From a virus, in IMG/VR virus record IMGVR_UViG_3300037155_000096: DNA of 64,000 bases. One strand, given 5' to 3'. The stretch's first letter is position 1. Every line of letters starts with the position of its first letter. Below the pieces are notes generated by a model. It saw only the letters and a program-made list of their open reading frames with translations, had not been told where the DNA came from and did no database searches. The position numbers and the translations under genes were made by a program. Below are positions 1,981-61,344 of this stretch, piece by piece.

Positions 1981-2014
1981 GTTATGGTGTATAACTTACA
2001 AGTTCCGTGCTAAG
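1981..2014 (-). promoter_or_regulatory. repeated sigma54-like promoter motif, copy 1
   Basis: CTTAGCACGGAACTTGTAAGTTATACACCATAAC. Confidence 0.75.
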
Positions 2015-2021
2015 ATTTATT

Positions 2022-2888
2022 TTACCATCCTGAGCCTGGCAGTTCTATCTCGGAGTCCACCACGCCGTCCTCCGGTGCCCTTGCTGGCGCATCAGAACGG
2101 AGACTTACAATCATGCTCTTTCCATACGTGACTATCACGCCCACCGTCGGGAAGTCAGCTTCAATTTTCCATTTCACCTTGTAGTAATCCCACTTAGCGA
2201 ATATATCCCCGATTATATTCTTCGCTGTATCGGGGCCGCATAATGCTACGAACTGTTTTATCTGGGACATCTCCTTGCCAGTCAGCCTCATTGTCTTGCC
2301 GACTTTATTCTGAAATACATTCGTATAATGCTTAGCCACCACAAAAGTCTCCGACACGTTACGGTCAACCGGCTTCTTCTCCGGTCTTACGAATGTGCCA
2401 TCGGCAATTTTCTTGCGTAACTCTTCAGTTTTGATTTTCTGACGTGCACGGATCTTTTCACTCGCTGATTGAACGACCTTTGCCGCTTCCTTCAATCGCA
2501 GGCTTTCTTTTTCCGTGTGTTTCTTAATTTCATCTTTACCCACAGCTTCATCTCCATATTTTTCAACAAAATGCGCAGGTATGGTCAGGATATAATAATA
2601 CGTCCTTCCATGCACGCGCGACCAACCGAGAATTCCCAAGTCCTTCCATTTAGTTAGCGCCCGTCGTACGGACCTAACGCTGATACCGACGTCTTTCGCT
2701 ATCGTGGATTGCTTGGGGAAACATTCTCCGCCTCCTCCTCCCTTTTTCTTACGGATTCTATCGAATAAATTCTGTAGCACCCCTTTCTCCGTTCCGTTTA
2801 CCTCGGTCATTCGCCAGATAAATTTAGGAACTTGCAGGAACCGGGATTCCATCCATGCATCTTTCTCTGCTATATTTCCTGAACTCAT
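2022..2888 (-). CDS. winged-helix HTH replication-initiator-like protein (HTH_36-type)
   Basis: FLQVPKFIW..GTEKGVLQNL..CFPKQSTIAKDVGISVRSVRRALTKWKDLGIL..R..GRTYYYIL, typical of phage/plasmid replication HTH N-domains. Confidence 0.7.
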   Translation of the reverse strand: MSSGNIAEKDAWMESRFLQVPKFIWRMTEVNGTEKGVLQNLFDRIRKKKGGGGGECFPKQSTIAKDVGISVRSVRRALTKWKDLGILGWSRVHGRTYYYILTIPAHFVEKYGDEAVGKDEIKKHTEKESLRLKEAAKVVQSASEKIRARQKIKTEELRKKIADGTFVRPEKKPVDRNVSETFVVAKHYTNVFQNKVGKTMRLTGKEMSQIKQFVALCGPDTAKNIIGDIFAKWDYYKVKWKIEADFPTVGVIVTYGKSMIVSLRSDAPARAPEDGVVDSEIELPGSGW

Positions 2889-3007
2889 ACCTATTCCATA
2901 ATCTTCAGCGCCTTATCTTTCGTTATCACAATTCTTTCATAATCCTTCATTTTAGTCTTACAACATCCTGACAAATAGGAAAATCAGCTTTAGGCAATTG
3001 ATTGCCC

Positions 3008-3235
3008 TCAGTCTATCAGCCTAATTTTGTCATCTTTAATCAGTGCGTATATGAATTCACCCAATCCGGGCGCCTCCCCATACTCCATCACGGACATTTT
3101 CAAATTCGTTTTCAACATTCCAACTCCGTCATCGATCATTACGTCGAGCAATAATCTCAGATTATCGTAAGACTCTACGTTGAGAGTCGGCTTTACGTAT
3201 CTTATTCCCACAACACGGACTAATCCCTGGTACAC
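3008..3235 (-). CDS. hypothetical protein
   Basis: ORF in tightly packed minus-strand run. Confidence 0.6.
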   Translation of the reverse strand: MYQGLVRVVGIRYVKPTLNVESYDNLRLLLDVMIDDGVGMLKTNLKMSVMEYGEAPGLGEFIYALIKDDKIRLID

Positions 3236-3448
3236 TTAGCCCGCCTTTTTCCACGGAACATAAATCTTCATTGGAATATCATGGTGCGTGCAACTGACAA
3301 TCGTAAAAGTCCGGACATTATTCTTCCCGAGTATTTTCTCATAATCGGTAATGTTCATGAGCCTCTTAGCCTTTTCGCACTTCTTCTGACATGCCACGAC
3401 CTTCTTATATTCATCTTCCGTCACTTTAATTTTTTCTATGCGGGGCAT
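3236..3448 (-). CDS. hypothetical protein
   Basis: ORF in tightly packed minus-strand run. Confidence 0.6.
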   Translation of the reverse strand: MPRIEKIKVTEDEYKKVVACQKKCEKAKRLMNITDYEKILGKNNVRTFTIVSCTHHDIPMKIYVPWKKAG

Positions 3449-3457
3449 TAATCAGCC

Positions 3458-3913
3458 TTATGTTAATTGCTTAAAATTATTCTCTTTGAGCGCATGATAC
3501 AGCGTCTGCTTCTTTGCGCCATCATATAAGTAAGCCATGAACATCTCCATTGGCTCAGCTTGGTCCACAAGAATCATGGACACCTGAATATCCACTAAAT
3601 CGCTTAGGATTTTCCACGCGGATCTTTGAGCCTGCAATCTTATCGACTCTCTTTGAGCGGTCGTGGGAGTTTGCTTCCTGGCTTTTACCATGTAATCGAA
3701 AACCTTATCCACATTTGCCGGCAACTGGAATACCATCGACTTTTCGTTGTGCATCAATTCGAATTTCATTCCAATAGGGATTTCATTTTCGTCTCCATAC
3801 TCTTTGGAAATATGCTTCGAGCCGACCTGCACGAGTTTTCCCTCGATCTTACTGACAGAGTTAATCACTGGCACTGACGAAGTATAATTCTTCAGATTCG
3901 GTTTTGCTATCAT
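3458..3913 (-). CDS. conserved phage/prophage hypothetical protein
   Basis: LKNYTSSV..SVSKIE..L..GSKHISKEY..FQLPANVDKV..QAQRSAWKIL.D.VDIQ..M pattern, recognised as a common phage family. Confidence 0.7.
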   Translation of the reverse strand: MIAKPNLKNYTSSVPVINSVSKIEGKLVQVGSKHISKEYGDENEIPIGMKFELMHNEKSMVFQLPANVDKVFDYMVKARKQTPTTAQRESIRLQAQRSAWKILSDLVDIQVSMILVDQAEPMEMFMAYLYDGAKKQTLYHALKENNFKQLT

Positions 3914-4754: not shown

Positions 4755-4772
4755 TTTATCCTTAATGTTAAA

Positions 4773-7032: not shown

Positions 7033-7065
7033 GTTTTAAGTAATACTTACAAGTTCCATGCTAAG
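7033..7065 (-). promoter_or_regulatory. repeated sigma54-like promoter motif, copy 2
   Basis: CTTAGCATGGAACTTGTAAGTATTACTTAAAAC. Confidence 0.75.
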
Positions 7066-7070
7066 AATTT

Positions 7071-7492: not shown

Positions 7493-7526
7493 GTTAAAGG
7501 TATGAACTTACAAAATGCGTGCTAAG
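7493..7526 (-). promoter_or_regulatory. repeated sigma54-like promoter motif, copy 3
   Basis: CTTAGCACGCATTTTGTAAGTTCATACCTTTAAC. Confidence 0.75.
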
Positions 7527-7544
7527 ATAAAACGGGTATAAACG

Positions 7545-8140: not shown

Positions 8141-8171
8141 GTAACTTACCTATCGCAATTATCGTGCTAAC
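8141..8171 (-). promoter_or_regulatory. variant motif copy (TTGC at -12)
   Basis: GTTAGCACGATAATTGCGATAGGTAAGTTAC. Confidence 0.5.
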
Positions 8172-8240
8172 ATGAAACCTGCGAAATTGATTGCAGTTTC
8201 CATAATTTTCTATTTGTCAGTAGAACGATCTTGATTGCAA

Positions 8241-9083
8241 TCACCATTTCTTTTTCTTATGGACCGTTCTTCCCATCGTCCGCTCGAATCTCAGCCTATC
8301 CTCTTCTTTCTGCTTCTTCTGATCTTTAATCTCATCATCAAGTTCCTGCTGCCATGCCTTCAACGCTTTAGCTTCTTCCAGTTCTTTCTCGGCTTTTTCC
8401 TTCTGTTTCTTGAGCATCATATCTACCAATGCTTTCTTCGGCGGATCGTCCGCTTCATCAAGGAACCATGTTCCCGCTGGCAGTCCCATTGGTTTCCTAA
8501 GCAATGGATCTCCATATCTTTCGTAAATTCCTTTTGCCGTAGCCAATTCAGATACACTGGCAACCGGTGTGGTCATTAACGGAATATACGGAAATTGCCA
8601 TTCACGCACCTTCGGACTTACCGTCTCCTTCTCCTCGCTCGGCTTAGGAGTCATATCCATCGGCTCGCCTTTCAGGACTTCCTCATATTCATTCAGGCAA
8701 TAAGACATGCAGGTTATCAGGAATTCTTTCGGTATATCAGCAGGAACATAAACATTATAACCCCAAAATCCCTCCGCACTGGTATCCGCCCATTTCGCTA
8801 TTTTACTGTCCGATAACTTAAACTGTCTCCAATAAAATGTTTTGCTCGGTTTATCATACATAATCACCATCGATGGAAAACCATATTTGAACAGGAATAA
8901 CAACCCGCCATTCCATTGGTCTTCACCGAACAAAATATCTTCAAGCTCGCTGTCCTCGATATGAATCTTCTTGAATTCTTCATCCGCCCACGGCAAAGTT
9001 CGCATGAAATGATCGCCGGTCATAAACACCGCGCCATCCAGTTCTGGGTAATCCATATACAAACAATCGTAATTTGACATCAT
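8241..9083 (-). CDS. hypothetical protein, paralogue family N-terminus plus charged coiled-coil tail
   Basis: N-terminus NYDCLYMDYPELDGAVFMTG; K/E-rich C-terminus. Confidence 0.75.
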   Translation of the reverse strand: MMSNYDCLYMDYPELDGAVFMTGDHFMRTLPWADEEFKKIHIEDSELEDILFGEDQWNGGLLFLFKYGFPSMVIMYDKPSKTFYWRQFKLSDSKIAKWADTSAEGFWGYNVYVPADIPKEFLITCMSYCLNEYEEVLKGEPMDMTPKPSEEKETVSPKVREWQFPYIPLMTTPVASVSELATAKGIYERYGDPLLRKPMGLPAGTWFLDEADDPPKKALVDMMLKKQKEKAEKELEEAKALKAWQQELDDEIKDQKKQKEEDRLRFERTMGRTVHKKKKW

Positions 9084-9174
9084 AGAACACGCTTCTTATT
9101 TATTTTCTTTCAGTACCTGTTTATGCTGAGCCACGGCATCCGCCACCTCCACAAAAATGCTTATATTATAATAA

Positions 9175-9207
9175 GTTACAGGCGTTACTTACAATATTCT
9201 TGCGGTA
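9175..9207 (-). promoter_or_regulatory. degenerate motif copy at island edge
   Basis: TACCGCAAGAATATTGTAAGTAACGCCTGTAAC; GCA-N6-TTGTAAGT spacing retained. Confidence 0.4.
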
Positions 9208-9442
9208 ATGACGCCTGAAACACCAAATTTCAGCTAAAAAACCTATTCCAATTCTTTAGTTTTATACCCCTTATAATCGCTTAATTAGGTCCAGGGCACA
9301 TTCCAGTACCTTTTTTATAACCAAGTGTCCTGGAGTTGCGTTTCTGTTGCTCATTTGTGTAAGCTTTTTCTAATCCCCCATAAAGAAATATGCCTAGGAA
9401 ATTTTATTATAAATATTGGATTCTTTAGGCATCAAGTTAATT

Positions 9443-10207
9443 CTAATTAAAAAAGAAATTTTCTAGATGCCGGCATAATGACATCATATCGTTAAAAATT
9501 GAATATTCATTTATTCCTGATAATAATAAAAATTTATTTGCCTCATTTATTAAGTCTTTATGAATCGGAAATTTATAAACACATTTAGGGACAAGTTCGT
9601 CTATACCCTGCTTTAATTTCCCATGTAATGTAAAGAAGCCTCCTTGTGCTATCATACGAGCATTAAATCTGAATGGGTAAAGTGCAATGGGGTAATCGTA
9701 TCTTTTCATTTTTACATCTTGATCAATAATATCAAGGTATCTATAAGGATAAATTTTGGTCAGTTCAGGATTTATTAATTCACCAATATTAAATGATTTT
9801 CTATTTAGCATAAAAGGATTCAAAATTACAATCTCTGGCAAATTTTTAGATTGTGGATTGTAATTCTTAATAGCAAAATATAGAGCAACGCCAAAATTAT
9901 TTGTCCAATCTAATAATCGAGTTGGAAGTCCATAATGCTGCATGAAAAATAAGTTGTGCCAAGTACTATCTTTATTAATTTGGTTCCCGGCGTTAGTAAC
10001 AAAATCAAAATACATATCATATTCCAAATATTTATCGTCATTAAATTTTTTAAGGTATTTACCACGATAGAGTCTTGGAATTAAATGATAAATCCCCTTA
10101 TTGTTGCTTTGACCTCGGAAATAAGGGACGTCGCACTTTAACTTTTTTAACTCGATGATTTGATTATAAACATTTTCTAATAGGTTTTCCCATTTTTTTG
10201 AATACAT
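9443..10207 (-). CDS. FRG domain protein
   Basis: YFRGQSN..LIPRLYR..MQHYGLPTRLLDWTNNFGVALYFA..NARMIAQGGFF; AT-rich codon usage. Confidence 0.92.
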   Translation of the reverse strand: MYSKKWENLLENVYNQIIELKKLKCDVPYFRGQSNNKGIYHLIPRLYRGKYLKKFNDDKYLEYDMYFDFVTNAGNQINKDSTWHNLFFMQHYGLPTRLLDWTNNFGVALYFAIKNYNPQSKNLPEIVILNPFMLNRKSFNIGELINPELTKIYPYRYLDIIDQDVKMKRYDYPIALYPFRFNARMIAQGGFFTLHGKLKQGIDELVPKCVYKFPIHKDLINEANKFLLLSGINEYSIFNDMMSLCRHLENFFFN

Positions 10208-10366
10208 ATTTTAGCCTATAATTATAATAATATTTTTTCGTTAAAGAGAATGTCTGACTTCGTTCTCGTTCTAACAACGATCATTTTAGGAGGGATTTTT
10301 CCATTTTAGAAATTTATATATTATATTGTTTGGCAAGAATCGTCCTAAATTAAAATATCTTTCATG

Positions 10367-10612
10367 TTACGAAAGCCAAAGTATCATAATTAAAAGAATA
10401 ATGAAGTTTATTATTCCAGCTAAGATACCTATTATCATTCTTTTTCGACTAAATAAATTAAACAACTGAGGAAAAGTTAATTCATCTCCATCTAATTTGT
10501 CAAAGAAATATTCACCGATGAATTTTTCTTTATCATATATTTGAAGGAAATAAGTTTTATTATCTTTAGAGAAAAGATGAATAAATTCTGCTTGATAATA
10601 TTTTAATGCCAT
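10367..10612 (-). CDS. small membrane protein
   Basis: C-terminal hydrophobic helix IIGILAGIINFIILLIMILW; AT-rich island. Confidence 0.55.
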   Translation of the reverse strand: MALKYYQAEFIHLFSKDNKTYFLQIYDKEKFIGEYFFDKLDGDELTFPQLFNLFSRKRMIIGILAGIINFIILLIMILWLS

Positions 10613-10695
10613 AAGAAACCTTGTATTATTTTATATAAACTGTTAGAATGTTAGTCAATTTTATATGAAATTTACCCAATAAATAGGAAAATAAT

Positions 10696-11157
10696 ATGAG
10701 TTTTCTTTCAAAATTATTTAAAGGTCAAATTTTAAAAATTAACGAACAAATAGACAATGTCTCTATAATAATTATGATGTCTACGGCCAAACGTTTATTA
10801 GATAAATATAGAAAATATTATGGAGAAGAAATATCCCCACTATTAGCTGCCGCTTTAGTAAATCGCCTATTTAATAAAGAACCAGGAAATGATGTCGGAG
10901 AAAAATTTTCTAAAGAAAATAAAGAATTGATTTTTAATGAATTATCAAAAATTAAAGATGAACCTGATATTTGTTATATGGTTAGTATGACGGCACATAT
11001 GAAAGCTAATATAGCTGGAAATTCTGCGCAATTTACTGAGAGTCTGCTTAGATGGATTTCAGAACTTGATAACCTTAAAATAATTATTCCTATAGAAAAA
11101 ATAAAAATGCCAAAATCTATTGATGAATTTATTGAAATGGCTCGTTCTTTTCATTGA
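10696..11157 (+). CDS. hypothetical protein (AT-rich island)
   Basis: 153-codon ORF in very AT-rich DNA with an AGGA upstream; opposite strand to the backbone. Confidence 0.75.
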   Translation: MSFLSKLFKGQILKINEQIDNVSIIIMMSTAKRLLDKYRKYYGEEISPLLAAALVNRLFNKEPGNDVGEKFSKENKELIFNELSKIKDEPDICYMVSMTAHMKANIAGNSAQFTESLLRWISELDNLKIIIPIEKIKMPKSIDEFIEMARSFH

Positions 11158-11161
11158 TTTA

Positions 11162-11269
11162 TTAATATAATATTCCTAATTGTTTGTCTTCAACGGATCT
11201 TGGGATCAGTTCATCCGCTTCATACTGCGCTAATTTCTCTTTGCTTCTTGGTATCGATACTGCTTTCAT
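11162..11269 (-). pseudogene. short, probably truncated backbone ORF at the island junction
   Basis: ATGA-coupled to the 11266 stop; MKAVSIPRSKEKLAQYEADELIPRSVEDKQLGILY* runs into AT-rich island DNA. Confidence 0.4.
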
Positions 11270-11688
11270 CTTTGTCCTTTGAATTCTTCCTTTCTGTAAT
11301 ACTTGCCCGCTTCATTTTTTCTGTTTCCATAAGTTTTCATAGCGAACATCATTATCGCTGGGATTTTTTCGGCATGTTCGACGACTTCCTGCGTATCCAC
11401 AAAATGAATCAGTGATTTCATCCCGCCCGGAAACGCTGCATGATAAACTCCATCATCGCCCCCCATCGGGTTACATTCGTAGCGGTCTACCCATTCCGAG
11501 TCACGATTTTTCGTAAACACCGTGAATGAGTCCATCTTGTTAGAGCAGCTGACAAACCTAAAGCGAGTCACTCCCCGCCTGGTCTGGGAGGGCATGGCGA
11601 ATACATCTCCCTTGTATGCCAGCAGGACTTCCAGATCCGGAACTCTTGCTAATACCTCATCAATAGATGCCAATCGATACCGTTTCAT
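11266..11688 (-). CDS. hypothetical protein, expanded paralogue family member
   Basis: SIDEVLARVPDLEVLLAYKGDVF. Confidence 0.75.
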   Translation of the reverse strand: MKRYRLASIDEVLARVPDLEVLLAYKGDVFAMPSQTRRGVTRFRFVSCSNKMDSFTVFTKNRDSEWVDRYECNPMGGDDGVYHAAFPGGMKSLIHFVDTQEVVEHAEKIPAIMMFAMKTYGNRKNEAGKYYRKEEFKGQR

Positions 11689-11774
11689 ATTATTTTCCAG
11701 AATAAGCCGATGACCGGCACTATGAATTTCAGATCCGGGTATGTGTCGAGCAAATCCGTTATTGATACTTCCAA
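11685..11774 (-). CDS. 29-aa mini-ORF holding only the shared family N-terminal motif
   Basis: TTG start abutting the upstream TAA; (M)EVSITDLLDTYPDLKFIVPVIGLFWKII*; ATGA-coupled to the next gene; not in the supplied ORF track. Confidence 0.5.
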   Translation of the reverse strand: MEVSITDLLDTYPDLKFIVPVIGLFWKII

Positions 11775-12110
11775 TTATTTTTTCACCAGTTTATCAACGA
11801 TTATCGTTACCAGCAATTCCTGTATGAATCCAACCGTCTCCGCGCCTTCCATAAGCTCAAAAAGTGCTTCCATATCTTCATTGCTGTATCTCGTATAATT
11901 GAAGTCCGCTGATTGCGTGCTTATCGTGTATGTGCATTTGCAGACCATCCCATCCGTGCCCAGATAATACGTGAACATGTTTTCTTTATCTGTAACTTCG
12001 ATTTCATAATCTCCCTCGAAAGTGTCCACCATCATATCCACGCGTCCTCGATATCCCACGATGAATCTCAGATCGGGTACTTGATCGAATACATCCTCCA
12101 TCTGTGGCAT
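11775..12110 (-). CDS. hypothetical protein, expanded paralogue family member
   Basis: QMEDVFDQVPDLRFIVGYRG..FTYYLGTDGMV. Confidence 0.75.
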   Translation of the reverse strand: MPQMEDVFDQVPDLRFIVGYRGRVDMMVDTFEGDYEIEVTDKENMFTYYLGTDGMVCKCTYTISTQSADFNYTRYSNEDMEALFELMEGAETVGFIQELLVTIIVDKLVKK

Positions 12111-12538
12111 TAAACGTCCTTGATATTATAATCGCTGAATTCCTCGGATATCACGCACTTAGTTCTTAATTTCCCGACCAGATACTTCATCATGGGGTAT
12201 GACAACCGTTCCTCGAACATATTTTCTCCCATGGCATTCATGTATCTTTCAAAAACATATTCGGTGCAGTTAAAATCGTTGAACGACCTTCTCTGCCTAT
12301 GAACGCTGTTAGTCGCTCCAAATTTTCTACCGTCCTCAAGGCCTATTATATACGTGACCGCCTTTCCCAGATAATCACACTCAACCGTATAAGAAGCCCC
12401 GTTGTGCCTGAATGTCGCCACACCATCGAAGCCGATGACAAATTTTATGTACGGAAATAGCTTGAATAACGAATGTATGTTATTCGGCAGATCTATAATC
12501 TGATTACCGGTTAATTCATTCATTTGGGAATTCCTCAA
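12110..12538 (-). CDS. hypothetical protein, expanded paralogue family member
   Basis: NIHSLFKLFPYIKFVIGFDG..VTYIIGLEDGRKF. Confidence 0.75.
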   Translation of the reverse strand: MRNSQMNELTGNQIIDLPNNIHSLFKLFPYIKFVIGFDGVATFRHNGASYTVECDYLGKAVTYIIGLEDGRKFGATNSVHRQRRSFNDFNCTEYVFERYMNAMGENMFEERLSYPMMKYLVGKLRTKCVISEEFSDYNIKDV

Positions 12539-13251: not shown

Positions 13252-13844
13252 GCCGGTACGCTGTCTGCCATTATTTTAATCGCTTGCTCTCTCGAACTAA
13301 CCGGATTTATCTTACTGTCCCAAAGTTTCAGCCCTTTTTCAATGACGCTTAATAGCCCGCCATCCACATATTTTATTATCTTCTTCTTGGGTATCAGTTC
13401 CATAAATTTCTGCGGAGAAATTCTTTTCAATTCGTAAGGGACAAAACAGGTGGTTCCACCCTCTGTCGGGAAGTAACCCGCCCTAAAGAATAAACCTTTA
13501 ATCTCAACAACTACGCTCTGACATGCATCATCGAACGTAATCACCCGATGATACTTCTTTGTTCCCCGATATGTGCGCTCCTGTGTCATAAAATTGCACT
13601 TTAATCCGATTGCCATCGTCAGCTCAGGGAATTTGTCCAGAATAGCGTCCACCGGGACTATCGGTCTGACCGATTGGATCTCATCAAGGACCGATTTATA
13701 CACCTTCGTGGATATTTCCGACAGCATCTCTGCACCCACCGCAAAATCTGCTTCGTCATACTTTGCACCGTAATATTCTCTTGGATCCATTATTTCCCTT
13801 ATAATTTTAACGTTAAATAGCTTAATATACTTCTGTTTCTGCAT
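13248..13844 (-). CDS. hypothetical protein, family domain with an N-terminal extension
   Basis: internal PVDAILDKFPELTMAIGLK. Confidence 0.7.
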   Translation of the reverse strand: MQKQKYIKLFNVKIIREIMDPREYYGAKYDEADFAVGAEMLSEISTKVYKSVLDEIQSVRPIVPVDAILDKFPELTMAIGLKCNFMTQERTYRGTKKYHRVITFDDACQSVVVEIKGLFFRAGYFPTEGGTTCFVPYELKRISPQKFMELIPKKKIIKYVDGGLLSVIEKGLKLWDSKINPVSSREQAIKIMADSVPA

Positions 13845-14208
13845 TTATCCTTGTCATGGCTATATCGTAATATGCCTTATATGCCGATTCCGCCATCGCT
13901 TTCGAGCCTTTCAATACTGTCCCTGCTGGCACCGTGCAACGGGAAATGCTGGAATCCCCAGTGTAAATGTTCACCATAACGAGTTCTGCAACGCCCCGTT
14001 TTACCCGAATCATCCTGCAAGCCACGCCCTGAGTCTCCCATAACAGGTATCCAGTCTTTTGAGCCAGCTTTATCAGATCATTCGTGGCTTCTTCTTCCCG
14101 GATGTAACTGAGCTGCATCGACAACTTTTCGATTTCTTTCTGGTTTTTCTCGATTGCCTTAGCAATTCCAATACTTAAACGTTTTTTCTTGAGTGCATCT
14201 GATTTCAT
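13822..14208 (-). CDS. hypothetical protein (possible paralogue of 14208-14591)
   Basis: N-terminal coiled coil then CRMIRV..ELVMVNI. Confidence 0.7.
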   Translation of the reverse strand: MKSDALKKKRLSIGIAKAIEKNQKEIEKLSMQLSYIREEEATNDLIKLAQKTGYLLWETQGVACRMIRVKRGVAELVMVNIYTGDSSISRCTVPAGTVLKGSKAMAESAYKAYYDIAMTRINAETEVY

Positions 14209-14627: not shown

Positions 14628-14659
14628 GTTTAAGTAATACTTACAAGTTCCATGCTAAG
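14628..14659 (-). promoter_or_regulatory. repeated sigma54-like promoter motif
   Basis: CTTAGCATGGAACTTGTAAGTATTACTTAAAC; first 31 nt identical to the 7033 copy. Confidence 0.75.
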
Positions 14660-14699
14660 AAAAAATATTTTTATTAACTGCCGTAACAGACCATAGGAC

Positions 14700-29944: not shown

Positions 29945-29978
29945 GTTGTAAAGTATTACTTACAAATTGCATGCTAAG
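29945..29978 (-). promoter_or_regulatory. repeated sigma54-like promoter motif
   Basis: CTTAGCATGCAATTTGTAAGTAATACTTTACAAC. Confidence 0.75.
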
Positions 29979-30312
29979 ATTTGAACAGAGATTCCCTTAA
30001 TAACTCAACATTCGCCGCCACATCAATCTCTTCCTGACTCAACGGCATGGCTACCTTGAGTTCAGCAAGTGCCGCATACATCGGTTGGAATCGGTAATCC
30101 AAAATGATGCTGGAATCCTTTGAGATTACTTTTGCCACAACCGCAGACAGAAAATTCTTTTCGGAGTCATTGAGCGGCTCCTTGGCAATATCCGTTCCCC
30201 ACCAGATCGCCTGGATCTTTTCAAATATCTTCTGAGACAATTCCTCAGCTCTCAGTTTTTCTGATTCATTTAATGCCATAATTTCCTTAGTTAATCTGTT
30301 TACTTCCATCAA
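29974..30312 (-). CDS. hypothetical protein
   Basis: ORF in minus-strand run. Confidence 0.65.
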   Translation of the reverse strand: MMEVNRLTKEIMALNESEKLRAEELSQKIFEKIQAIWWGTDIAKEPLNDSEKNFLSAVVAKVISKDSSIILDYRFQPMYAALAELKVAMPLSQEEIDVAANVELLRESLFKS

Positions 30313-32012: not shown

Positions 32013-32046
32013 GTTATGAGGTATTACTTACAAAAGGCGTGCTAAG
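32013..32046 (-). promoter_or_regulatory. repeated sigma54-like promoter motif
   Basis: CTTAGCACGCCTTTTGTAAGTAATACCTCATAAC. Confidence 0.75.
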
Positions 32047-32096
32047 AATTTGATTAAATTATCGGTGGGATGAACGTATTCTGTCGCAAATGTATG

Positions 32097-35420: not shown

Positions 35421-35453
35421 GTTTGTAAGATAACTTACAAGAAACGTGCTAAG
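35421..35453 (-). promoter_or_regulatory. repeated sigma54-like promoter motif
   Basis: CTTAGCACGTTTCTTGTAAGTTATCTTACAAAC. Confidence 0.75.
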
Positions 35454-35463
35454 AAAAAAGGTA

Positions 35464-37217: not shown

Positions 37218-37784
37218 CTAAGGATCTACGCGGACACTCAGAATATCCGCCATTGTCGTGGGATGTTCGGCTACCACCGATACTGTATAATGAGCCCCTT
37301 TTCTTACTGTCAGCTTAGTCAATCGTCGGCTGGTAAAGGTCTTTGGATCGCCCAACGGAAGAAGTTCTCCATTCACTTCAAGATGCCCCTCTAATACATG
37401 CATCGTGTACGTGCCATGCGACGGATTTTCGTTAATGCCGAGGATTTCAAAATCAGCATGAGCGTGAACCGCATACTGAAAAAACCTCCCCGTGGCCTCC
37501 TCATGCAAAGGTCTTACTATCGAGTGCGGAGTAACTATCGGCGACATCTGAGTTCGTTTGCACACATGAAAGAAATCCCCTGAGCACGCCCCCAAAGCTG
37601 TGGCGATAAGTTTTATCTGGTCATACTTGGGCTGCTGCTCGCCTGAGAGCAATCTGGATATTACTGATTTGGAAAGTCCTGTCTTCTTGCAGAGCCTGAC
37701 TTGACTAAAGTCTCTGTCTGACATCATCTTATTTAATCTTGTAGAAAAAATCTTAACCTCCCCTATCGATAAAATGTGACACAA
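37218..37784 (-). CDS. XRE-family HTH regulator with cupin-like C-domain
   Basis: SQVRLCKKTGLSKSVISRLLSGEQQPKYDQIKLIATALG; HVLEGHLEVNG cupin-like segment. Confidence 0.8.
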   Translation of the reverse strand: MCHILSIGEVKIFSTRLNKMMSDRDFSQVRLCKKTGLSKSVISRLLSGEQQPKYDQIKLIATALGACSGDFFHVCKRTQMSPIVTPHSIVRPLHEEATGRFFQYAVHAHADFEILGINENPSHGTYTMHVLEGHLEVNGELLPLGDPKTFTSRRLTKLTVRKGAHYTVSVVAEHPTTMADILSVRVDP

Positions 37785-37796
37785 AATACGGATAAA

Positions 37797-37876
37797 ATTG
37801 TCAGTTAAACTTGCTCGTCTCCGGGCACGCTCCGGCTGTTGCTACGCCCTATGCCTCGCCAATTGTAAAATATGAA
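37797..37876. repeat. 80-bp direct repeat, copy 1
   Basis: 72/80 identical to 38221-38300. Confidence 0.9.
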
Positions 37877-37902
37877 AAGGAATTTTATTGTTACAACTTA
37901 TT

Positions 37903-38172
37903 TTATGAAGTATATCTCAATAAAACTTTTGCGTTTATTTCCTTTTCTAAATGAGTTACAAATTCAGCAAGGGTTATCTTTAGGTGAGTGCATATTTCCC
38001 GAAGTTCTATTATATCTACTTTCCTTTGACCTGTTTCAATCTTACTAATATAGGATTGAGGAACACCTAGCTTCTTAGCCAAATCAACCTGAAGAAGCCC
38101 AGCTTTTGTCCGGTATTCAGTAAATACCTGGACAAAAAACTTATATTCCTTTTTATAGATACTCTTTTTCAC
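37903..38172 (-). CDS. XRE-family HTH transcriptional regulator
   Basis: RTKAGLLQVDLAKKLGVPQSYISKIETGQRKVDIIEL. Confidence 0.9.
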   Translation of the reverse strand: MKKSIYKKEYKFFVQVFTEYRTKAGLLQVDLAKKLGVPQSYISKIETGQRKVDIIELREICTHLKITLAEFVTHLEKEINAKVLLRYTS

Positions 38173-38197
38173 ACCATAAATTTATATCCTGATATCG

Positions 38198-38218
38198 AAT
38201 ATCCCATTTTGGGATATT
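38198..38218. promoter_or_regulatory. palindromic operator upstream of the XRE gene
   Basis: AATATCCCA-TTT-TGGGATATT, perfect 9-bp inverted repeat. Confidence 0.6.
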
Positions 38219-38220
38219 AT

Positions 38221-38300
38221 ATTGTCAATTAAACTTGCTCGTCTCCGGGCACGCTCCCGTTGTCGCTACGCCCTACACCTCACCATTTGTAAAATATGAA
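38221..38300. repeat. 80-bp direct repeat, copy 2
   Basis: 72/80 identical to 37797-37876. Confidence 0.9.
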
Positions 38301-38464
38301 TAGATATATAATATTGTTTACTTGATAGGAATTGAATATTAAAAGAATATCCATTAACTTTATATAAATTTATATCTGTGTTTGGCTAATGATGAGCGGG
38401 TTAAGATTCCATTAAGAACTAAATGGTAAGAATATAGAATAATTAATAATTATTGAGCTAATTT

Positions 38465-39292
38465 ATGGAGAGAGAAATAGAGTTATTAAAAATATTAAAT
38501 TCATTTATCTTAATAGGAAAAGGTAGCAAATTAACTGCTTCGGACAAAGATAATCGGTTATTAGACGCAGAAGGATTAGGTGTTAAAATATTATACCACG
38601 CTTTAACCATCCTTTATCTATATCGTTCAACAAACATTCCAGATTTAAGTATAACAAATATCAGTTTTTTTGATGCCGCTTCAATTAATGTTCTTGGAAG
38701 AGCTGCTATTGAATCATTTTTAGTCTTTCAATATGTCTTTGTTAATAACAAAGACTATGAGCATGAAGATTATCACTATTTATCTTGGGTTTTGGGAGGA
38801 CTTATTGAAAGACAAAATTTGCCCATTTATTCACCTGAAGGCAAAAAAGTGTTAGAAGACGACCGCAAATTCATTCTAAGCTTAGAACCAAGGTTAAAAA
38901 CTAACAAATATTTTCTTGATCTAACGGATAAACAAAAAACTAATCTATTAACAAAAGGTATTTGGCGGTTAAAATCTTGGAGTGATATTGGATTAGAATC
39001 TGGGTTAAGCGATTCCTATGCAAAAGCATTTTATGGTTATCTCTGTGGTTATGCTCATGCGAGTAATTTAAGTGTTCTTCAATTAAGGCAAGCGGAAACA
39101 GCAACAGCTCAAAAAAAATTATGTGAGGCAACTATTGGTTATCTTTTAATTGCTTTATCAAAATTTATTAAATCCTATACGAAAGTATTTTCGCAAGCAA
39201 AACCAATTTATGATTCGCTAATTGATAGAAATATTATTGAGGTTTGGGACTCAGTTGGGTCTAAATCTTTAAGGGATGTTCAAATTGATTAA
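38465..39292 (+). CDS. DUF5677-like (HEPN-like) protein
   Basis: LGRAAIESFLVFQYV and FYGYLCGYAH motifs; AT-rich island. Confidence 0.65.
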   Translation: MEREIELLKILNSFILIGKGSKLTASDKDNRLLDAEGLGVKILYHALTILYLYRSTNIPDLSITNISFFDAASINVLGRAAIESFLVFQYVFVNNKDYEHEDYHYLSWVLGGLIERQNLPIYSPEGKKVLEDDRKFILSLEPRLKTNKYFLDLTDKQKTNLLTKGIWRLKSWSDIGLESGLSDSYAKAFYGYLCGYAHASNLSVLQLRQAETATAQKKLCEATIGYLLIALSKFIKSYTKVFSQAKPIYDSLIDRNIIEVWDSVGSKSLRDVQID

Positions 39293-44276: not shown

Positions 44277-44309
44277 GTTTGAAGATTATCTTACAATAAA
44301 CGTGCTAAA
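44277..44309 (-). promoter_or_regulatory. repeated sigma54-like promoter motif
   Basis: TTTAGCACGTTTATTGTAAGATAATCTTCAAAC. Confidence 0.7.
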
Positions 44310-44310
44310 G

Positions 44311-45926: not shown

Positions 45927-45960
45927 GTTAAAGTGTATAACTTACAAATAGCGTGCTAAG
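45927..45960 (-). promoter_or_regulatory. repeated sigma54-like promoter motif
   Basis: CTTAGCACGCTATTTGTAAGTTATACACTTTAAC. Confidence 0.75.
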
Positions 45961-45979
45961 ATTTATAGGTATCTCCAAC

Positions 45980-51495: not shown

Positions 51496-51528
51496 GTTAT
51501 AAGGTATACTTTCAAAGACCGTGCTAAG
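51496..51528 (-). promoter_or_regulatory. repeated sigma54-like promoter motif
   Basis: CTTAGCACGGTCTTTGAAAGTATACCTTATAAC. Confidence 0.7.
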
Positions 51529-51808
51529 AAATAATTGGTTCAGTATCTTCGGTTATTAAAATATCGTACAGTCTCCAGTCCTCTTCATCGAACAAATCAT
51601 AGACATCCGATTCTGGCGTATGGCTGATAATCACTGTATCCTTAACATGATCGAACTCGGTAACCAGCCGTGAAGGTCTAGCGCCATCTAATATGCTTAC
51701 GGCTATCTCTTCGAGCGCATCCATGTCGGATTCAGAATAATCTTTTATTTTCTGCTGGAGAAGTCTGACCAGCTCATCGACCTTTATTTCATATTTCTTG
51801 TTCTTCAT
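51524..51808 (-). CDS. hypothetical protein
   Basis: ORF in run. Confidence 0.65.
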   Translation of the reverse strand: MKNKKYEIKVDELVRLLQQKIKDYSESDMDALEEIAVSILDGARPSRLVTEFDHVKDTVIISHTPESDVYDLFDEEDWRLYDILITEDTEPIIS

Positions 51809-53284: not shown

Positions 53285-53318
53285 GTTATGAAGTGTAACT
53301 TACAAGAAGTGTGCTAAG
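53285..53318 (-). promoter_or_regulatory. repeated sigma54-like promoter motif
   Basis: CTTAGCACACTTCTTGTAAGTTACACTTCATAAC. Confidence 0.75.
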
Positions 53319-53351
53319 AAATATTTGGTCTTACAAATATGAAAATCAGTG

Positions 53352-53787: not shown

Positions 53788-53821
53788 GTTATGAGGTATA
53801 ACGAACAAGTTCCGTGCTAAG
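53788..53821 (-). promoter_or_regulatory. repeated sigma54-like promoter motif
   Basis: CTTAGCACGGAACTTGTTCGTTATACCTCATAAC; begins immediately after the parB stop. Confidence 0.7.
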
Positions 53822-54673
53822 TTATTTTTTAGCTTTCAGAACCCGTAACTTTTCAGTTAACTGTCTAATTAAGTCTTTTTTATCAGTATACTTGAAGGTC
53901 AAACTCAGGACCGTAGACTTGATTGCATGCTTATCCCTGATTTCCCTTGCCATCACCATTGCATCTTCTGCGGGGACGAATTCCTGATAAATTATTTTGT
54001 CGAACAAGGCTTTTTGTTCATCCGGGAAATCCTTAATCAGGTGCAAAGCTTTTGCGTGGCCGATAGACATTGGAGTCTTAGCTTCCTTCTTGAAACTTAC
54101 TATCTCTTTTTGCATTTCTTCAGGCAGATTCAGGATCCTAACATAATTCTTTCTTGTCGATTCTGATATTCCAAGCATTGCCTCCACTTCAGACCAGGGT
54201 GCATTTTCTCCCAGCATGCCCTTGTACTCCAAAAGAGCGTATGCTTTATCCACCACATTCAGATCTTCCCGACATAAATTCTCAATCAACTGCTTAGCAA
54301 AGATGTCCTTGCCATCAGAAGGCTTCAGAATCATGCATGGCAGTTCCGCTATGCCAAGATCTCGTGCCGCCCGATATCTTCTCTCCCCCGTAATCAAAAC
54401 AAACGTACCAGCGTCTTCTGAGCGAACTGTGAGTGGCTGCAATATTCCATGCATCTGTATGGAATTCATCAATTCCTGCATTTTAGCGGGATCAAACTCC
54501 TTTCTGGGCTGGTTTTCGTCCGGATGAACGAGTTCTATTGCGATTATTCGGGCATTAGATAACCTTTTTGACTGACTATACCCGCCATCGGACTGGAATT
54601 TACTGGTCAATTCAATTCCAGGTCTATCGTTCTTTAGGGATTCATTAAGCTGTTTCGTAAAATTTTTCGACAC
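53822..54673 (-). CDS. parB: ParB/Spo0J partition protein
   Basis: PDENQPRKEFD..ELMNSIQMHGILQPLTVR..LITGERRYRAA..ENLCREDL. Confidence 0.95.
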   Translation of the reverse strand: MSKNFTKQLNESLKNDRPGIELTSKFQSDGGYSQSKRLSNARIIAIELVHPDENQPRKEFDPAKMQELMNSIQMHGILQPLTVRSEDAGTFVLITGERRYRAARDLGIAELPCMILKPSDGKDIFAKQLIENLCREDLNVVDKAYALLEYKGMLGENAPWSEVEAMLGISESTRKNYVRILNLPEEMQKEIVSFKKEAKTPMSIGHAKALHLIKDFPDEQKALFDKIIYQEFVPAEDAMVMAREIRDKHAIKSTVLSLTFKYTDKKDLIRQLTEKLRVLKAKK

Positions 54674-55442
54674 GTTCCATCATCTCCTTGAAAAGTGATT
54701 TAATCGTAAGAACTCCATCTTCCTGACTGATGGACTTGTTGGCTATTAACTTATGCGTGGAATTTGCTTCTGCAAAAAGAGGTATATTCCTAACTATGCT
54801 CTTGAAAACCGTGTCTCCGTATAAATTTCTAATCACCTTTACCATGTCCGCTTCATATCTACGTCGTCCCAATAACTTGTTTATTACGATACCAAGTAAA
54901 ACCAAATCCGGGTTACTACGTTTCTTGATAGCATCAACCGTTGCCGTTAACTGATTAGCTCCGCTTGCCGCCCATTCTCCAGCTTCCACCGGAACTACGA
55001 AGAATGAAGCATAGGTTAGAGCCATCCTGGTCGCCCGCAATAAATTCGGAGCGCAATCGAGGATCACATAATCATAATCTCTTTCGACATCCACCAGCGC
55101 CTCCTTCAATCTAAACTGAGCATCATCTGCCATCGCCAGTTTGATATCCACGTCTCCGAATGCCAGATTGCATGGGATAATGTCGATTAACTTCCATTTC
55201 GTCGGCTGGATTATATCTTTCGCTGGTGTATCATTGACAATCAGGTCATTTATGGTAAGCGGTATGGTCTGATATTCCTTATTCAGAAAGAATTTCGACA
55301 TATTGCCCTGCGGATCTGTATCCACAAGCAGTATCCTACTTTTCTTATCCGAAGCTGCCGCTCCAGCTATCTGAATAGTGAGCGTGGTCTTGCCGACTCC
55401 CCCTTTTTGGTTCGCAAATGCAATCCGTACCGGTTCTTTCAT
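54645..55442 (-). CDS. parA: ParA/Soj partition ATPase
   Basis: ANQKGGVGKTT, LLVDTDPQGN, YVILDCAP. Confidence 0.95.
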   Translation of the reverse strand: MKEPVRIAFANQKGGVGKTTLTIQIAGAAASDKKSRILLVDTDPQGNMSKFFLNKEYQTIPLTINDLIVNDTPAKDIIQPTKWKLIDIIPCNLAFGDVDIKLAMADDAQFRLKEALVDVERDYDYVILDCAPNLLRATRMALTYASFFVVPVEAGEWAASGANQLTATVDAIKKRSNPDLVLLGIVINKLLGRRRYEADMVKVIRNLYGDTVFKSIVRNIPLFAEANSTHKLIANKSISQEDGVLTIKSLFKEMMERVEKFYETA

Positions 55443-55444
55443 GC

Positions 55445-56764
55445 CTACTCCTTCTCAGGGGGCACGACGTGCCCCCTCTGTTCAAGAATCTTATTTATGG
55501 TCACCAAAATGGCTCCCCGAATGAAAATCGGGGCATTTTCGTACAATTCCACCGTGAATTCCTTTAAGGGGACACCGTATTTCTTCAATCCGTCCTTATT
55601 GGCATAATCGAATGCCTCTGGATCAGATTTTTCCAGAAGGACAATCGCTTCATCAAATAATTTCTTTTGTCCATCTTTCGTAAGAGCCAGCCATTGTTTC
55701 CTTAATTGCTGGTCCTTCGCCAGTCTTATTTTGTCCCTCCCCTTACCCAACTCCTCCTTTTCGTGACGTTCATTCTTATTCTTCAGGATCTTCATTTGTT
55801 CTTCCCTGAACTTGACATATCCTTTGGGAATTTCATATCCATTTTCAAGAGCCGATATCAGAAAACCGGTTATGTTTTTCTCCGCCTTTGAATATCCGAG
55901 CTTCAAACTTTCAACCCACTGGGCAATTTCTTCTTCATCGAACCGGGTGAGCAATTCCTTAACTCCATCTTCCGTGACTCCCAAATTCTTTAGTTCTACG
56001 GCTAGTCCAGAGGAAAACAAATCAGGGGACTCCGGTGCTGGCAATGACGAGCCTGGTCTTCTTGAAATCTTAAATTTCACAGCGTCGGGCTTTCGGTTCG
56101 GTTTGTATTCAACTTCGATGTTAATCTCAGCATCAGGTATCGAATGGATATCTTCGATGGGCTTGTTTATCAGTTTCTTTTTCAGATCTCGCAGGTCTTG
56201 ATATTCGTGGACTCCGACTCCCATGAGTTTCTTGAATATCGAGATCGGAATCCATGGAGTCTCCCCGTAGGTTCTCTTTACATCATAGTAATCGATGCAG
56301 AGTTCATACATTGCAAGTGAGTATTTTGACATGAAGTTATTTTGCATCCGCAAGTTGATCCTTGCATACATTCTTGGATTATATAACTTCTCTCGCAGTC
56401 CCTTGTAATATCCCCAATAAATCTTGCCTTCCTTAAACGTAGCACCAGCCAAGAAAGTAGTCGTACCCCATTCCGCTACACCATCCTTCCCCAGAATATT
56501 CCATTCGATTTGCGTAGTATTCAAAGCTATGAGTGTGCTTTTCAGATAGTCCCGATTCGAATCTCCATACTCCAACATATCACATAGTTCTATAATGGGC
56601 ATGCTATATTCTTCTTTATTCTGGAGTTCATCATAGGCGTGGGCAAGTAGTACGTTCCAGGCTTTTCGTTGTAGTAAACTTACTACATTATTCACCTGAA
56701 TCGACGCAGAATGCTTAATGACCGACTGCGGTCTAGGCGTATTCGTTGTAATTGTCTTGGTCAA
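55445..56764 (-). CDS. plasmid replication initiator (Rep_3 / RepB family)
   Basis: VIKHSASIQ..SLLQRKAWNVLL..EWNILG..LYNPRMYARINL..SKYSLAMYE..PWIPISIFKKLMG..KKLINKPI. Confidence 0.92.
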   Translation of the reverse strand: MTKTITTNTPRPQSVIKHSASIQVNNVVSLLQRKAWNVLLAHAYDELQNKEEYSMPIIELCDMLEYGDSNRDYLKSTLIALNTTQIEWNILGKDGVAEWGTTTFLAGATFKEGKIYWGYYKGLREKLYNPRMYARINLRMQNNFMSKYSLAMYELCIDYYDVKRTYGETPWIPISIFKKLMGVGVHEYQDLRDLKKKLINKPIEDIHSIPDAEINIEVEYKPNRKPDAVKFKISRRPGSSLPAPESPDLFSSGLAVELKNLGVTEDGVKELLTRFDEEEIAQWVESLKLGYSKAEKNITGFLISALENGYEIPKGYVKFREEQMKILKNKNERHEKEELGKGRDKIRLAKDQQLRKQWLALTKDGQKKLFDEAIVLLEKSDPEAFDYANKDGLKKYGVPLKEFTVELYENAPIFIRGAILVTINKILEQRGHVVPPEKE

Positions 56765-56822
56765 AACGATTGCTCTTGTGTTACGGGAACAAACTTAATA
56801 AAATCATTGGGACAAAAGCAAA

Positions 56823-56838
56823 TATAAACGTCCACATT
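56823..56838. promoter_or_regulatory. single iteron in the rep promoter region (probable autorepression site)
   Basis: TATAAACGTCCACATT, 59 bp upstream of the rep start, next to a minus-strand TTGACA. Confidence 0.7.
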
Positions 56839-58789: not shown

Positions 58790-58798
58790 CGTATGTCC

Positions 58799-59191: not shown

Positions 59192-59375
59192 CTTGTCCGC
59201 AGTTAGAACATCTGTAATGATATAACCCCGGACTAGTATACAGTACCGTTCCTGTCAGCTGGAGAGTTTTCTCCTTATCGCATATCGGGCATTTGCTTTG
59301 TTCAAGAAATTGCGTAAACATAACAGGGGAGGGGAGAGGCTGTCCCACCTCCACCTCAATATCTTTTTCTATCAT
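59106..59375 (-). CDS. small zinc-finger protein
   Basis: CPIC..CSNC. Confidence 0.65.
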   Translation of the reverse strand: MIEKDIEVEVGQPLPSPVMFTQFLEQSKCPICDKEKTLQLTGTVLYTSPGLYHYRCSNCGQDGHVGYDSIPIKRDGVIQPRNIVFKEAW

Positions 59376-60616
59376 ACCGGAACCTGATCTACCACCACAT
59401 CCGGAGTAACAAGCACTTCCGCTTCATCCGGGAGTTTTGGTTCTACCGGCGCATATTCTGTTGTAAAACCTAAACGGTTCATAGCGTCCAGAATATGATG
59501 CGAATGTATAAGTTCCATGCAAGGGGACAGACCGCTCAGAATTTTCTTTGACAGCTCACATCCTCCGTTTCCATGAGAGAAACAACTTGCAAATTCACCG
59601 CGAGCAAATTCGCAGTTACTATTGGAATCTATACCAACGGCATTTTTATACGTAGCAATACGTAATGCAGAAGGGAAGGGGCCGTATAATCCGATTAACG
59701 GAGTATCGAGTGCACCTGCTATATGCAGTAGACTGCTATCCGGACCTATCACAAGATCTGCGATACTTAGAAAAGCCGCCATCTGCGTAAGCGTTGGCAT
59801 GGTCTCCGAACCATTGAATATTCTCCCGGCGGCCTGCGGAACATTCTGGATAAGATCGTTAATCATGCCATTCTGATTTTCTGAACCGAAGAACCAGAAT
59901 ACATAATTCTTTGGCAGCGCATTCATGAGGTCGACGTAGACAGGCAACGGGACGCTTCTTTTCGTTACAGATGCCGCTATCTGAATACATACGTGGATAA
60001 TATCCTGGTCAGGCACAAAGTCAACATTCTGCTGATAGAATTCGATTGCTGAAAGTTTCGCAACTTTTGCCCTTTCGAGATCGAAGGTACTGATATTGAC
60101 CGCTGGCTTATAGTCTACCGAGGGATCAAGGTGACATGCTTTAGCAAATAAGTCGTAAGCATTTTCATGCTCAGCCGATGGATTAGATTCGATTAGACTT
60201 TGGAAGTACAGGCAGTAATCAAATTCCTGTACCTTCTCTTCAAGAAGTGGAAACGTACCCATTTCATACGAAGCATCGCATTTCAATAACTTCGCATAAT
60301 AACCGTTGGTTATCAGGGTGATACTGGCATCAGGATATTTCTCTTTTAGTTTTTTCAGGCTTGCCGAAATAAATAACAGATCTCCAATCCCGCCGTTCCG
60401 GAATACTACGAGCTTCTTTCCATTAAGGTCTTCGCCAGCATAAAAATGTGCTGGTTCAAATTCTTCTGCGGACTTTATTTTCGATTCGCCCAGGTCTCTG
60501 ATCATTACGTCCACATACACATCGGCTACGATATAACCGACATCTTTCTTCAATAGCATTTTCTGACCGTACTCATCATTACTCATGATGTCTATTTTCG
60601 ATATTAAACACTTCAT
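59372..60616 (-). CDS. glycosyltransferase family 9 (heptosyltransferase-like)
   Basis: RNGGIGDLL..LKEKYPDASI; ADLVIGPDSSLLHIAGALDTPLIGLYGP. Confidence 0.9.
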   Translation of the reverse strand: MKCLISKIDIMSNDEYGQKMLLKKDVGYIVADVYVDVMIRDLGESKIKSAEEFEPAHFYAGEDLNGKKLVVFRNGGIGDLLFISASLKKLKEKYPDASITLITNGYYAKLLKCDASYEMGTFPLLEEKVQEFDYCLYFQSLIESNPSAEHENAYDLFAKACHLDPSVDYKPAVNISTFDLERAKVAKLSAIEFYQQNVDFVPDQDIIHVCIQIAASVTKRSVPLPVYVDLMNALPKNYVFWFFGSENQNGMINDLIQNVPQAAGRIFNGSETMPTLTQMAAFLSIADLVIGPDSSLLHIAGALDTPLIGLYGPFPSALRIATYKNAVGIDSNSNCEFARGEFASCFSHGNGGCELSKKILSGLSPCMELIHSHHILDAMNRLGFTTEYAPVEPKLPDEAEVLVTPDVVVDQVPV

Positions 60617-60885
60617 GCTGCTTTCTCCACGTTATATTCGTTGATTGAAACTATTCCAGCTAAACTGAAGTTTGTGCTCATGTGAGCATTCAATCCATCG
60701 ACATAACTTGGATCTTTAACAAAGAACTTCGGTAGGAATCCTGTTAGTATCTCCCTTAGATACGCTATTTCTTTCTTCATCTCGTAAACAGTTGCCTGTT
60801 CCTTCAGGAAGCCCATTTTCTTTTCTTCCTTTTTCTTCTGGTTCGGTGCCCAGCCACCTTTTCCGTTCGGCTTCGTCTTTGACAT
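60613..60885 (-). CDS. hypothetical protein
   Basis: ORF coupled to GT9; overlaps the upstream ORF tail by 170 nt. Confidence 0.6.
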   Translation of the reverse strand: MSKTKPNGKGGWAPNQKKKEEKKMGFLKEQATVYEMKKEIAYLREILTGFLPKFFVKDPSYVDGLNAHMSTNFSLAGIVSINEYNVEKAA

Positions 60886-61285
60886 TCGACATACTCCTCA
60901 GATTTTTAGTTATTGGTATCATTTTATTATCACTACTGATCACAGCCCATTTTACTGGTCTGTTTGTCCAGATTACAGCTGGAACAAATTCTCTTTTCTC
61001 ATCGATGCACATGACTAAAACTTCTTCGCCTGATAGCAGGAAGTAATTGCCGTCAAAATCATATATAATCGGTCTGGGCAGGAACTTCTCCAGCTTGAGC
61101 TTCAGCATTTTCTTGTAATGCATATCCTTTCTTCCCTTGACCTGATTAAATGCCGTCAGCGGGATGTCCATATACAACGTGTACTTCCATTCGATAGGGG
61201 AGCCTTTGCCGGATTTCGACAGGACATTATATCTTGCGAGTGCTTCCTCTATGGTCTCCGTCGTTAATCCCTGATAAAATTCCAT
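60716..61285 (-). CDS. possible degenerate ParB/Srx-like domain protein
   Basis: PRPIIYDFDGNYFLLSG..FVPAVI resembles the ParB-N layout but lacks the GxxR motif. Confidence 0.4.
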   Translation of the reverse strand: MEFYQGLTTETIEEALARYNVLSKSGKGSPIEWKYTLYMDIPLTAFNQVKGRKDMHYKKMLKLKLEKFLPRPIIYDFDGNYFLLSGEEVLVMCIDEKREFVPAVIWTNRPVKWAVISSDNKMIPITKNLRSMSNVKDEAERKRWLGTEPEEKGRKENGLPEGTGNCLRDEERNSVSKGDTNRIPTEVLC

Positions 61286-61310
61286 GCTCTTGACATTCCG
61301 TTAAATAATG

Positions 61311-61344
61311 CGTAAAACTTTCATATTTCAAAAACCGTGCTAAG
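61311..61344 (-). promoter_or_regulatory. divergent copy of the repeated motif
   Basis: CTTAGCACGGTTTTTGAAATATGAAAGTTTTACG. Confidence 0.55.

Follow-up and report, generated by a model that had tools for sequence, protein, structure and literature searches.

Promoter classes of their own are common among phages, and a repeated promoter cassette alone is unsurprising. Some such promoters depend on a phage activator and combine a phage-specific box with a -10 element, as do the MotA/AsiA-dependent middle promoters of T4 and the Lpa-dependent late promoters of P1; to our knowledge, transcription in phages of Bacteroidota is almost unstudied. In T4-type phages, the PeSL cassettes are promoter-terminator units, with recombination between copies (PMC2839356, PMC4122927). 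In Bacteroidota, the sigmaA consensus consists of TTTG at -33 and a -7 box, TAnnTTTG, at -12 to -5, and the sigma54 promoters of Flavobacterium psychrophilum mapped by their transcription start sites are typical of the -24/-12 kind (PMC9723704). A sigma54-like promoter has also been reported in the Pseudomonas phage YuA (10.1101/2023.10.13.562163). Here we describe a repeated intergenic element in a stretch of 64,000 nucleotides (nt) from the IMG/VR virus record IMGVR_UViG_3300037155_000096, referred to below as the window. By kind it would be a phage-specific promoter cassette, a kind already known, and its intriguing feature is a likeness to sigma54 promoters (TGGCACG-N4-TTGCW) in all but the hallmark bases.

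The exact word TTAGCAYG-N4-TTGT (TTAGCAYGNNNNTTGT) occurs 11 times in the window, every time on the minus strand, against an expectation of 0.00 from 100 dinucleotide-preserving shuffles, and the motif is by a wide margin the most frequent intergenic word there. When one or two mismatches were allowed, further copies came up at 51512, 53302, 8155, 61328 and 10333, and a core without an intact TTAGCA box lies at 9187-9208. Mismatch search and inspection together gave 13 strong copies (first T of TTAGCA at 2013, 7064, 7525, 14658, 29977, 32045, 35452, 37187, 44308, 45959, 51527, 53317 and 53820) and three to four degenerate ones (8170, about 9206, 10348 and 61343). All are intergenic and on the minus strand, and the 13 near-perfect and three degenerate copies counted at gene boundaries in the first-pass annotation of this stretch agree with them in number and coordinates.

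1994..2015, minus strand: strong copy, TCTTAGCACG-GAAC-TTGTAAGT, heading the operon of a 233-aa protein, PolX and Gam; position weight matrix score 48.2
7045..7066, minus strand: strong copy, exact match
7506..7527, minus strand: strong copy, preceded by a hairpin
8151..8172, minus strand: degenerate copy with TTGC, its GTAAGT block shifted by 6 nt and the next start codon 222 nt away
9187..9208, minus strand: degenerate copy, cGCAaG-AATA-TTGTAAGT, core only
10329..10350, minus strand: degenerate copy, TTAGGACG-ATTC-TTGC, within a low-GC variable island
14639..14660, minus strand: strong copy, exact match
29958..29979, minus strand: strong copy, its TAG the stop codon of the upstream gene
32026..32047, minus strand: strong copy, exact match
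35433..35454, minus strand: strong copy heading a 392-aa gene and the site of recombination in variants L037, L042 and L052
37168..37189, minus strand: strong copy immediately after the gene for a 188-aa XRE-type regulator
44289..44310, minus strand: strong copy immediately after a terminator hairpin and T-run
45940..45961, minus strand: strong copy, exact match
51508..51529, minus strand: strong copy, TTGA variant, its TAG the stop codon of the upstream gene
53298..53319, minus strand: strong copy, variant TTAGCACA
53801..53822, minus strand: strong copy beginning 1 nt past the parB stop codon
61324..61345, minus strand: degenerate copy with TTGA and a weak downstream half

Aligned, the copies yield the extended consensus wwwwTCTTAGCAYG-N4-TTGTAAGTwATACnYnATAACA, followed by a looser AAAATAACAG; its parts are an A/T-rich stretch, TCTTAGCAYG, N4, TTGTAAGT and wATACnYnATAACA. 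Information content is maximal in both blocks and falls to about zero across the 4-nt gap, the two halves of the motif are almost never found separately, and the spacing within GCAYG-N4-TTG is identical in all copies. This fixed spacing had been recognized before, together with the near-constant G after GCAY, which is indeed missing at 53317 alone (TTAGCACA).

Counted from the first T of TTAGCA, the called start codon follows after 49-73 nt at 11 of the 13 strong copies, and the two exceptions, at 29977 (359 nt) and 37187 (156 nt), appear to precede a short open reading frame (ORF) absent from the gene list. Several copies adjoin the stop codon of the preceding gene and others come after a hairpin and T-run; only about half of all copies have a clear upstream stem-loop. 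At two copies the TAG within TTAGCA is itself the stop codon of the preceding gene (29974-29976 and 51524-51526), and here the promoter overlaps the gene end. The strain variants L037, L042 and L052 carry a hybrid copy made of upstream sequence of the 35452 type, the N4 bases of copy 32045 and downstream sequence of the 29977 type, which implies that recombination between promoter copies removed about 5.5 kb.

Identical metagenome contigs, together with one IMG/VR record of 77.8 kb, served to extend the genome beyond the window (positions outside the window are given below with the label of the sequence concerned). Because the two outward walks meet, the genome is circular and of about 185 kb, which is consistent with the CheckV completeness of 42% for the 77.8-kb record. 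Genes in the window encode a Rep3 initiator, ParA and ParB, a CobS/CobT-like AAA+/VWA pair, an ATP-dependent ligase, a dNMP kinase, MazG, PolX, Mu-Gam-like proteins and two XRE regulators, besides which there are an HTH_36 regulator gene and many small ORFs without assigned function. Downstream of window position 1 follow, in order, ligase, DnaB, primase, ResIII helicase, RecA, GroES, SSB, a glycan-tailoring operon and an intein-split terminase, and then a T4-type portal, S77 protease, gp23, gp13, gp19, baseplate, a fibre-like protein of 3617 aa, fibres and lysis genes; pAgo-SIR2 and BREX islands follow past the end of the window. Judged by these genes, T4-type morphogenesis on the one hand and Rep3/ParAB on the other, the element is a phage-plasmid. 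Its major capsid protein (MCP) shares at most 31% identity with that of any INPHARED phage, and the motif is absent from the closest relative by head genes, G471:C1 (38% MCP identity, GC 58%).

The host is probably an uncultured member of the Bacteroidota. Clues from the gene content are a type IX secretion system (T9SS) sorting domain, PEGA and CarboxypepD_reg proteins encoded by the element, and, as cargo of some of the variants, a SusC-type TonB receptor with 66% identity to a Bacteroidota gene. A further clue is the Bacteroidota-type promoter TTTG-N21-TAAGTTTG ahead of rep, in the following operon:

53822..56833, minus strand: rep (Rep3), parA and parB, with their own promoter TTTG-N21-TAAGTTTG and no motif

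This operon shows that the element also uses host-type promoters and that the motif forms a separate promoter class, because the rep promoter of the very same element is of the Bacteroidota sigmaA type.

A weight-matrix scan gave at least five more copies shortly beyond the window's edges (L022:8530, L022:4212, L023:1548, the weak L023:9926, and L071:14140), for about 20 genome-wide, and zero in the roughly 76 kb that run from RecA via the structural genes to the lysis genes. The cassettes head early/middle, accessory and DNA-metabolism operons spread over about 105 kb, and the rep-parAB operon and the defence islands have none. In scans of IMG/VR, GTDB representative genomes and JGI metagenomes, the motif turned up in this phage lineage only, other matches being due to chance or lying in coding sequence, and no diverged relative carrying a variant of it came to light; a literature search on the motif words returned nothing relevant. 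The cassette, 22-40 nt long and in a single strand orientation, makes up a strand-specific, element-wide, promoter-like regulon that is lineage-restricted and strongly non-random. Relatives found via the CobT-like protein were too distant to inform on the motif. In a Bacteroidota genome (G081), an IS-like repeat has TTTAGCATGATTTTTGTATG near its end at eight sites (e.g., C1:564785), a superficial likeness only.

We favour the explanation that an element-specific promoter cassette has the motif as its core and is read by the host RNA polymerase together with a phage-directed specificity factor, and we give this explanation about an even chance of being correct. The unit, which often comes after the stop codon or terminator of the one before it, would comprise the A/T-rich stretch, TCTTAGCAYG, N4, TTGTAAGT, an initiation region ATAC..ATAACA with the predicted start near ATAAC, and a leader of 20-40 nt. 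Since the phage does not encode a polymerase itself, the host core enzyme would have to transcribe it, and specificity would come from a phage-directed factor without a recognizable family, which may be an activator, a sigma-appropriation pair or a cryptic sigma, and which would bind the TCTTAGCAYG box near -24. The TAAGTw segment, with T-12, A-11 and T-8, could then serve as a weak host-type -10/-7 element. By analogy, the arrangement of a phage-specific box near a weak -10-like element in one temporal class would correspond to an activator- or appropriation-dependent phage promoter.

The comparison with described systems bears on this reading in several ways. First, the MotA/AsiA and Lpa promoters likewise have a phage-specific box in place of the -35/-33 element, a TAnnnT-like downstream element and a common temporal class. 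They differ in that homologues of MotA, AsiA or Lpa did not turn up here and, for MotA/AsiA, in that the box stands 9 nt from TAAGTw rather than about 12 and is centred near -23 rather than -30. Second, PeSL cassettes are also repeated, composite and in one orientation; they are set among the small ORFs of an early region that is plastic, in phages that share T4-type morphogenesis genes with this element, and recombination between copies creates strain differences in them as it does here in one hybrid-copy recombinant type. PeSL promoters, however, are early promoters of the host sigma70, whereas the present motif fits neither sigma70 nor Bacteroidota sigmaA and has a stem-loop at only about half of its copies. 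Finally, TAAGTw retains T-12, A-11 and T-8 of the Bacteroidota sigmaA promoter, of which the rep gene has the full version, but the motif has neither the TTTG of the -7 box nor a TTTG 19-21 nt upstream (-33).

Searches for a phage factor drew on Pfam and PHROGs scans of about 100 window ORFs, six-frame searches of the 77.8-kb IMG/VR record and precomputed Pfam lists for the contigs, and they covered about 178 of the 185 kb, up to about 83 kb of the genome and from about 90.6 kb onward, with part of the BREX island. Within this range there were no Sigma54_DBD, Sigma54_activat (PF00158), Sigma70 or RNA-polymerase domains, and no ORF contained an RpoN box or a GAFTGA or DxDGD motif. Pfam scans likewise gave no signature of a T7-type, multisubunit or YonO/crAss-type polymerase. 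For the window itself, the Pfam and PHROGs scans bear out the earlier statement that it contains no sigma factor or enhancer-binding protein, and they also gave no match to MotA or AsiA. Several individual candidates were rejected. A giant virion polymerase such as that of crAss-like phages was ruled out, the 3617-aa protein of the baseplate/fibre region (G103:58623-69476) being without DxDGD, without any Pfam domain and of fibre-like composition, rich in Gly, Thr and Ser. A phmmer search for a T4 gp55-like factor and a regular-expression search for a region-2-like sigma were negative, as were ESM Atlas look-ups of a 392-aa and a 334-aa protein as reading factors. In a distant phage of 57% GC (L032), a Sigma70_r2 gene at 13412-14020 directly follows CobT-like and AAA_5 genes and has no homologue in the present phage; this hints that phage CobST-like pairs are linked to transcription factors.

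Three points weigh against our preferred explanation. These searches found no activator, MotA/AsiA-like protein or sigma; agreement with the -7 box is partial, TAnnT being present without TTG; and a match to sigma54 at 10 of 12 positions in register is unexpected for an activator-type cassette. The missing reading factor is the main weakness, and because of it a second explanation keeps some weight, namely that the cassette is a sigma54-type promoter, with TAGCAYG-N4-TTGT bound at -24/-12 by the sigma54 holoenzyme of the host in spite of two altered hallmark bases. We regard it as unlikely. In this case an unrecognizable phage protein might retarget sigma54, or the non-consensus -12 base might ease the need for an activator, and the lytic and replication genes would be kept tightly off in the plasmid-prophage state.

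The geometry on which the sigma54 proposal of the first-pass annotation rested is well founded. Both promoter kinds consist of two blocks with a 4-nt gap, invariant here, and ten of the 12 consensus positions match in register (T.GCAYG-N4-TTG.A; T-26, G-24, C, A, Y, G, T-15, T-14, G-13 and W-11), with a Y at -27 in addition; a random bipartite motif does so with a probability of about 8e-5. The distance to the predicted start, which coincides with the conserved ATAAC, also agrees with sigma54 promoters, and phage YuA provides a precedent (10.1101/2023.10.13.562163). The hallmark dinucleotides are changed, as the first-pass annotation had it. In place of GG at -25/-24, all copies whose TTAGCA is intact, within the window or beyond it, have AG (9187-9208 reads CG), and in place of GC at -13/-12 the strong copies have GT, in most cases, or GA, but two degenerate copies, 8170 and 10348, keep the GC of TTGC. 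The A at -25 and the T or A at -12 speak against recognition by sigma54. So does the conservation that runs on from -11 as far as -4, not a usual feature of sigma54 promoters, and so does the lack of a common upstream activator site, no word shared beyond chance having been found at -250 to -13 among the 17 best copies.

As to what might read such a site, two proposals had been made, an RpoN-like factor encoded by the element and a host with an unusual RpoN. The first found no support, as neither RpoN nor an enhancer-binding protein turned up in the searches described above, although an activator could come from the host. The second is weakened. Across 101 Bacteroidota genomes, canonical TGGCAYG-N4-TTGCA is enriched (89 matches vs 33 for the reversed control) and the recoded TAGCAYG-N4-TTGTA is not (40 vs 68, including eight copies of one insertion sequence (IS) element). 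RpoN was found in all four Bacteroidota genomes checked, a point in favour of sigma54, but each time with the canonical box ARRTVAKYR, and the typical sigma54 promoters of Flavobacterium point the same way.

One cassette-like site, located beyond the window and preceding the glycan-tailoring operon (L023:18160-18190, including 18166; G103:10040-10070), reads cGGGCATG-CATT-TTGCATGT...CCATAACAC...TTTAACA and has the canonical GG-N10-GC. It would favour sigma54, but the agreement may be incidental, because the same site also folds into a hairpin of 9 bp (z = -4). Taken in its strictest form, as a sigma54-derived class with both hallmark dinucleotides recoded and with the host sigma54 either retargeted by a small family-less phage protein or working without a classical enhancer-binding activator, the proposal is doubtful; if true, it would give the phage-plasmid an orthogonal, leak-free switch of about 20 operons.

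A third explanation makes the asymmetric 20-nt motif the operator of a master repressor, bound at every early promoter, with the true promoter elements weaker and overlapping. The C1 operators of the phage-plasmid P1 are similarly dispersed over its genome, and the Rep3/ParAB lifestyle, the asymmetric, dispersed and singly oriented motif and the encoded regulators (two XRE and one HTH_36) all suit it. It is nonetheless improbable, given that the conserved initiation region and the fixed distance from the start codon indicate a whole promoter cassette, that no separate host-type -33/-7 elements stand beside the motif, and that XRE repressors usually bind palindromes. Operator and promoter function could, however, be compatible rather than exclusive. 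The two XRE genes are a candidate lysogeny switch:

37218..38172, minus strand: two XRE/Cro-CI-type regulator genes (188 aa and 89 aa), not driven by the motif

Upstream of each of them, at 37785-37900 and 38173-38290, there is a repeat of about 70 nt, CATATTTTACAAwTGGyGAGG...GGAGCGTGCCCGGAGACGAGCAAGTTTAAyTGACAAT, a possible operator region or RNA.

It is very unlikely that the cassette is a sigma70-type promoter with TTGTAA as -35, an A/T-rich hexamer 17-18 nt downstream (AAAAAT, CAAAAT) as -10 and TCTTAGCAYG as an upstream activator or UP-like site. In most copies there is such a hexamer at the right distance, with A at -11 and T at -7, and two late/lysis promoters of the same genome have the form TTGTAAC-N16-TAAYTT; but the hexamer region has a low information content, several genes would have implausibly short leaders, of about 4-8 nt, and the conserved ATAC..ATAACA would be left as an unexplained spacer. 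Canonical sigma70 sites were not enriched. The two promoter-like TTGTAAC-N16-TAAYTT sites constitute a second class, with about 25 nt conserved upstream, and lie at G103:70307 and 75401 (L071:3448 and 8542), ahead of the fibre and GAF-lysis blocks. Least credible of all is an RNA-level signal (a processing site or shared 5' leader) instead of a DNA promoter, since a conserved leader-like part (AAAATAACAG) does lie near the start codons, but terminators stand directly upstream of several copies, no hairpin is conserved or covarying (the GTTAT/ATAAC pairing is lost when one side changes) and conservation is strongest upstream of any plausible RNA start.

Other features of the element lie apart from the motif's function. 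An island of variable cargo at window positions 8200-12500 (compared with L078:9600-15400, L002:1-2200 and L080) holds an FRG-domain gene and low-GC ORFs in the window and, in other variants, an ArsP_2 permease, a SusC-type TonB-dependent receptor, an energy-coupling factor (ECF)-transporter S component and a cupin. That L002 might be an integrated prophage was ruled out, its TonB-receptor and ArsP genes being cargo within the phage genome. The upstream regions of the lipoprotein-pAgo-SIR2 operon (L022:9230-9360) and of the DUF5677/trypsin-like protease operon (window 38335-38465, plus strand) are alike, with ATCCATTAACTTTAT...GAGCG..TAAGATTCCA in common, which suggests that they share a promoter or mark the boundary of a mobile defence cassette. 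An Rfam search of the window gave no match.

In summary, this cassette fits neither the host sigmaA nor any phage polymerase, yet mimics sigma54 save at two defining bases, and it does so in the unusual setting of a large T4-type phage-plasmid of Bacteroidota. The identity of its reader would reveal either a new way to redirect the RNA polymerase of Bacteroidota or a retargeted sigma54, and the 22-nt cassette would be a candidate orthogonal expression signal for these bacteria.

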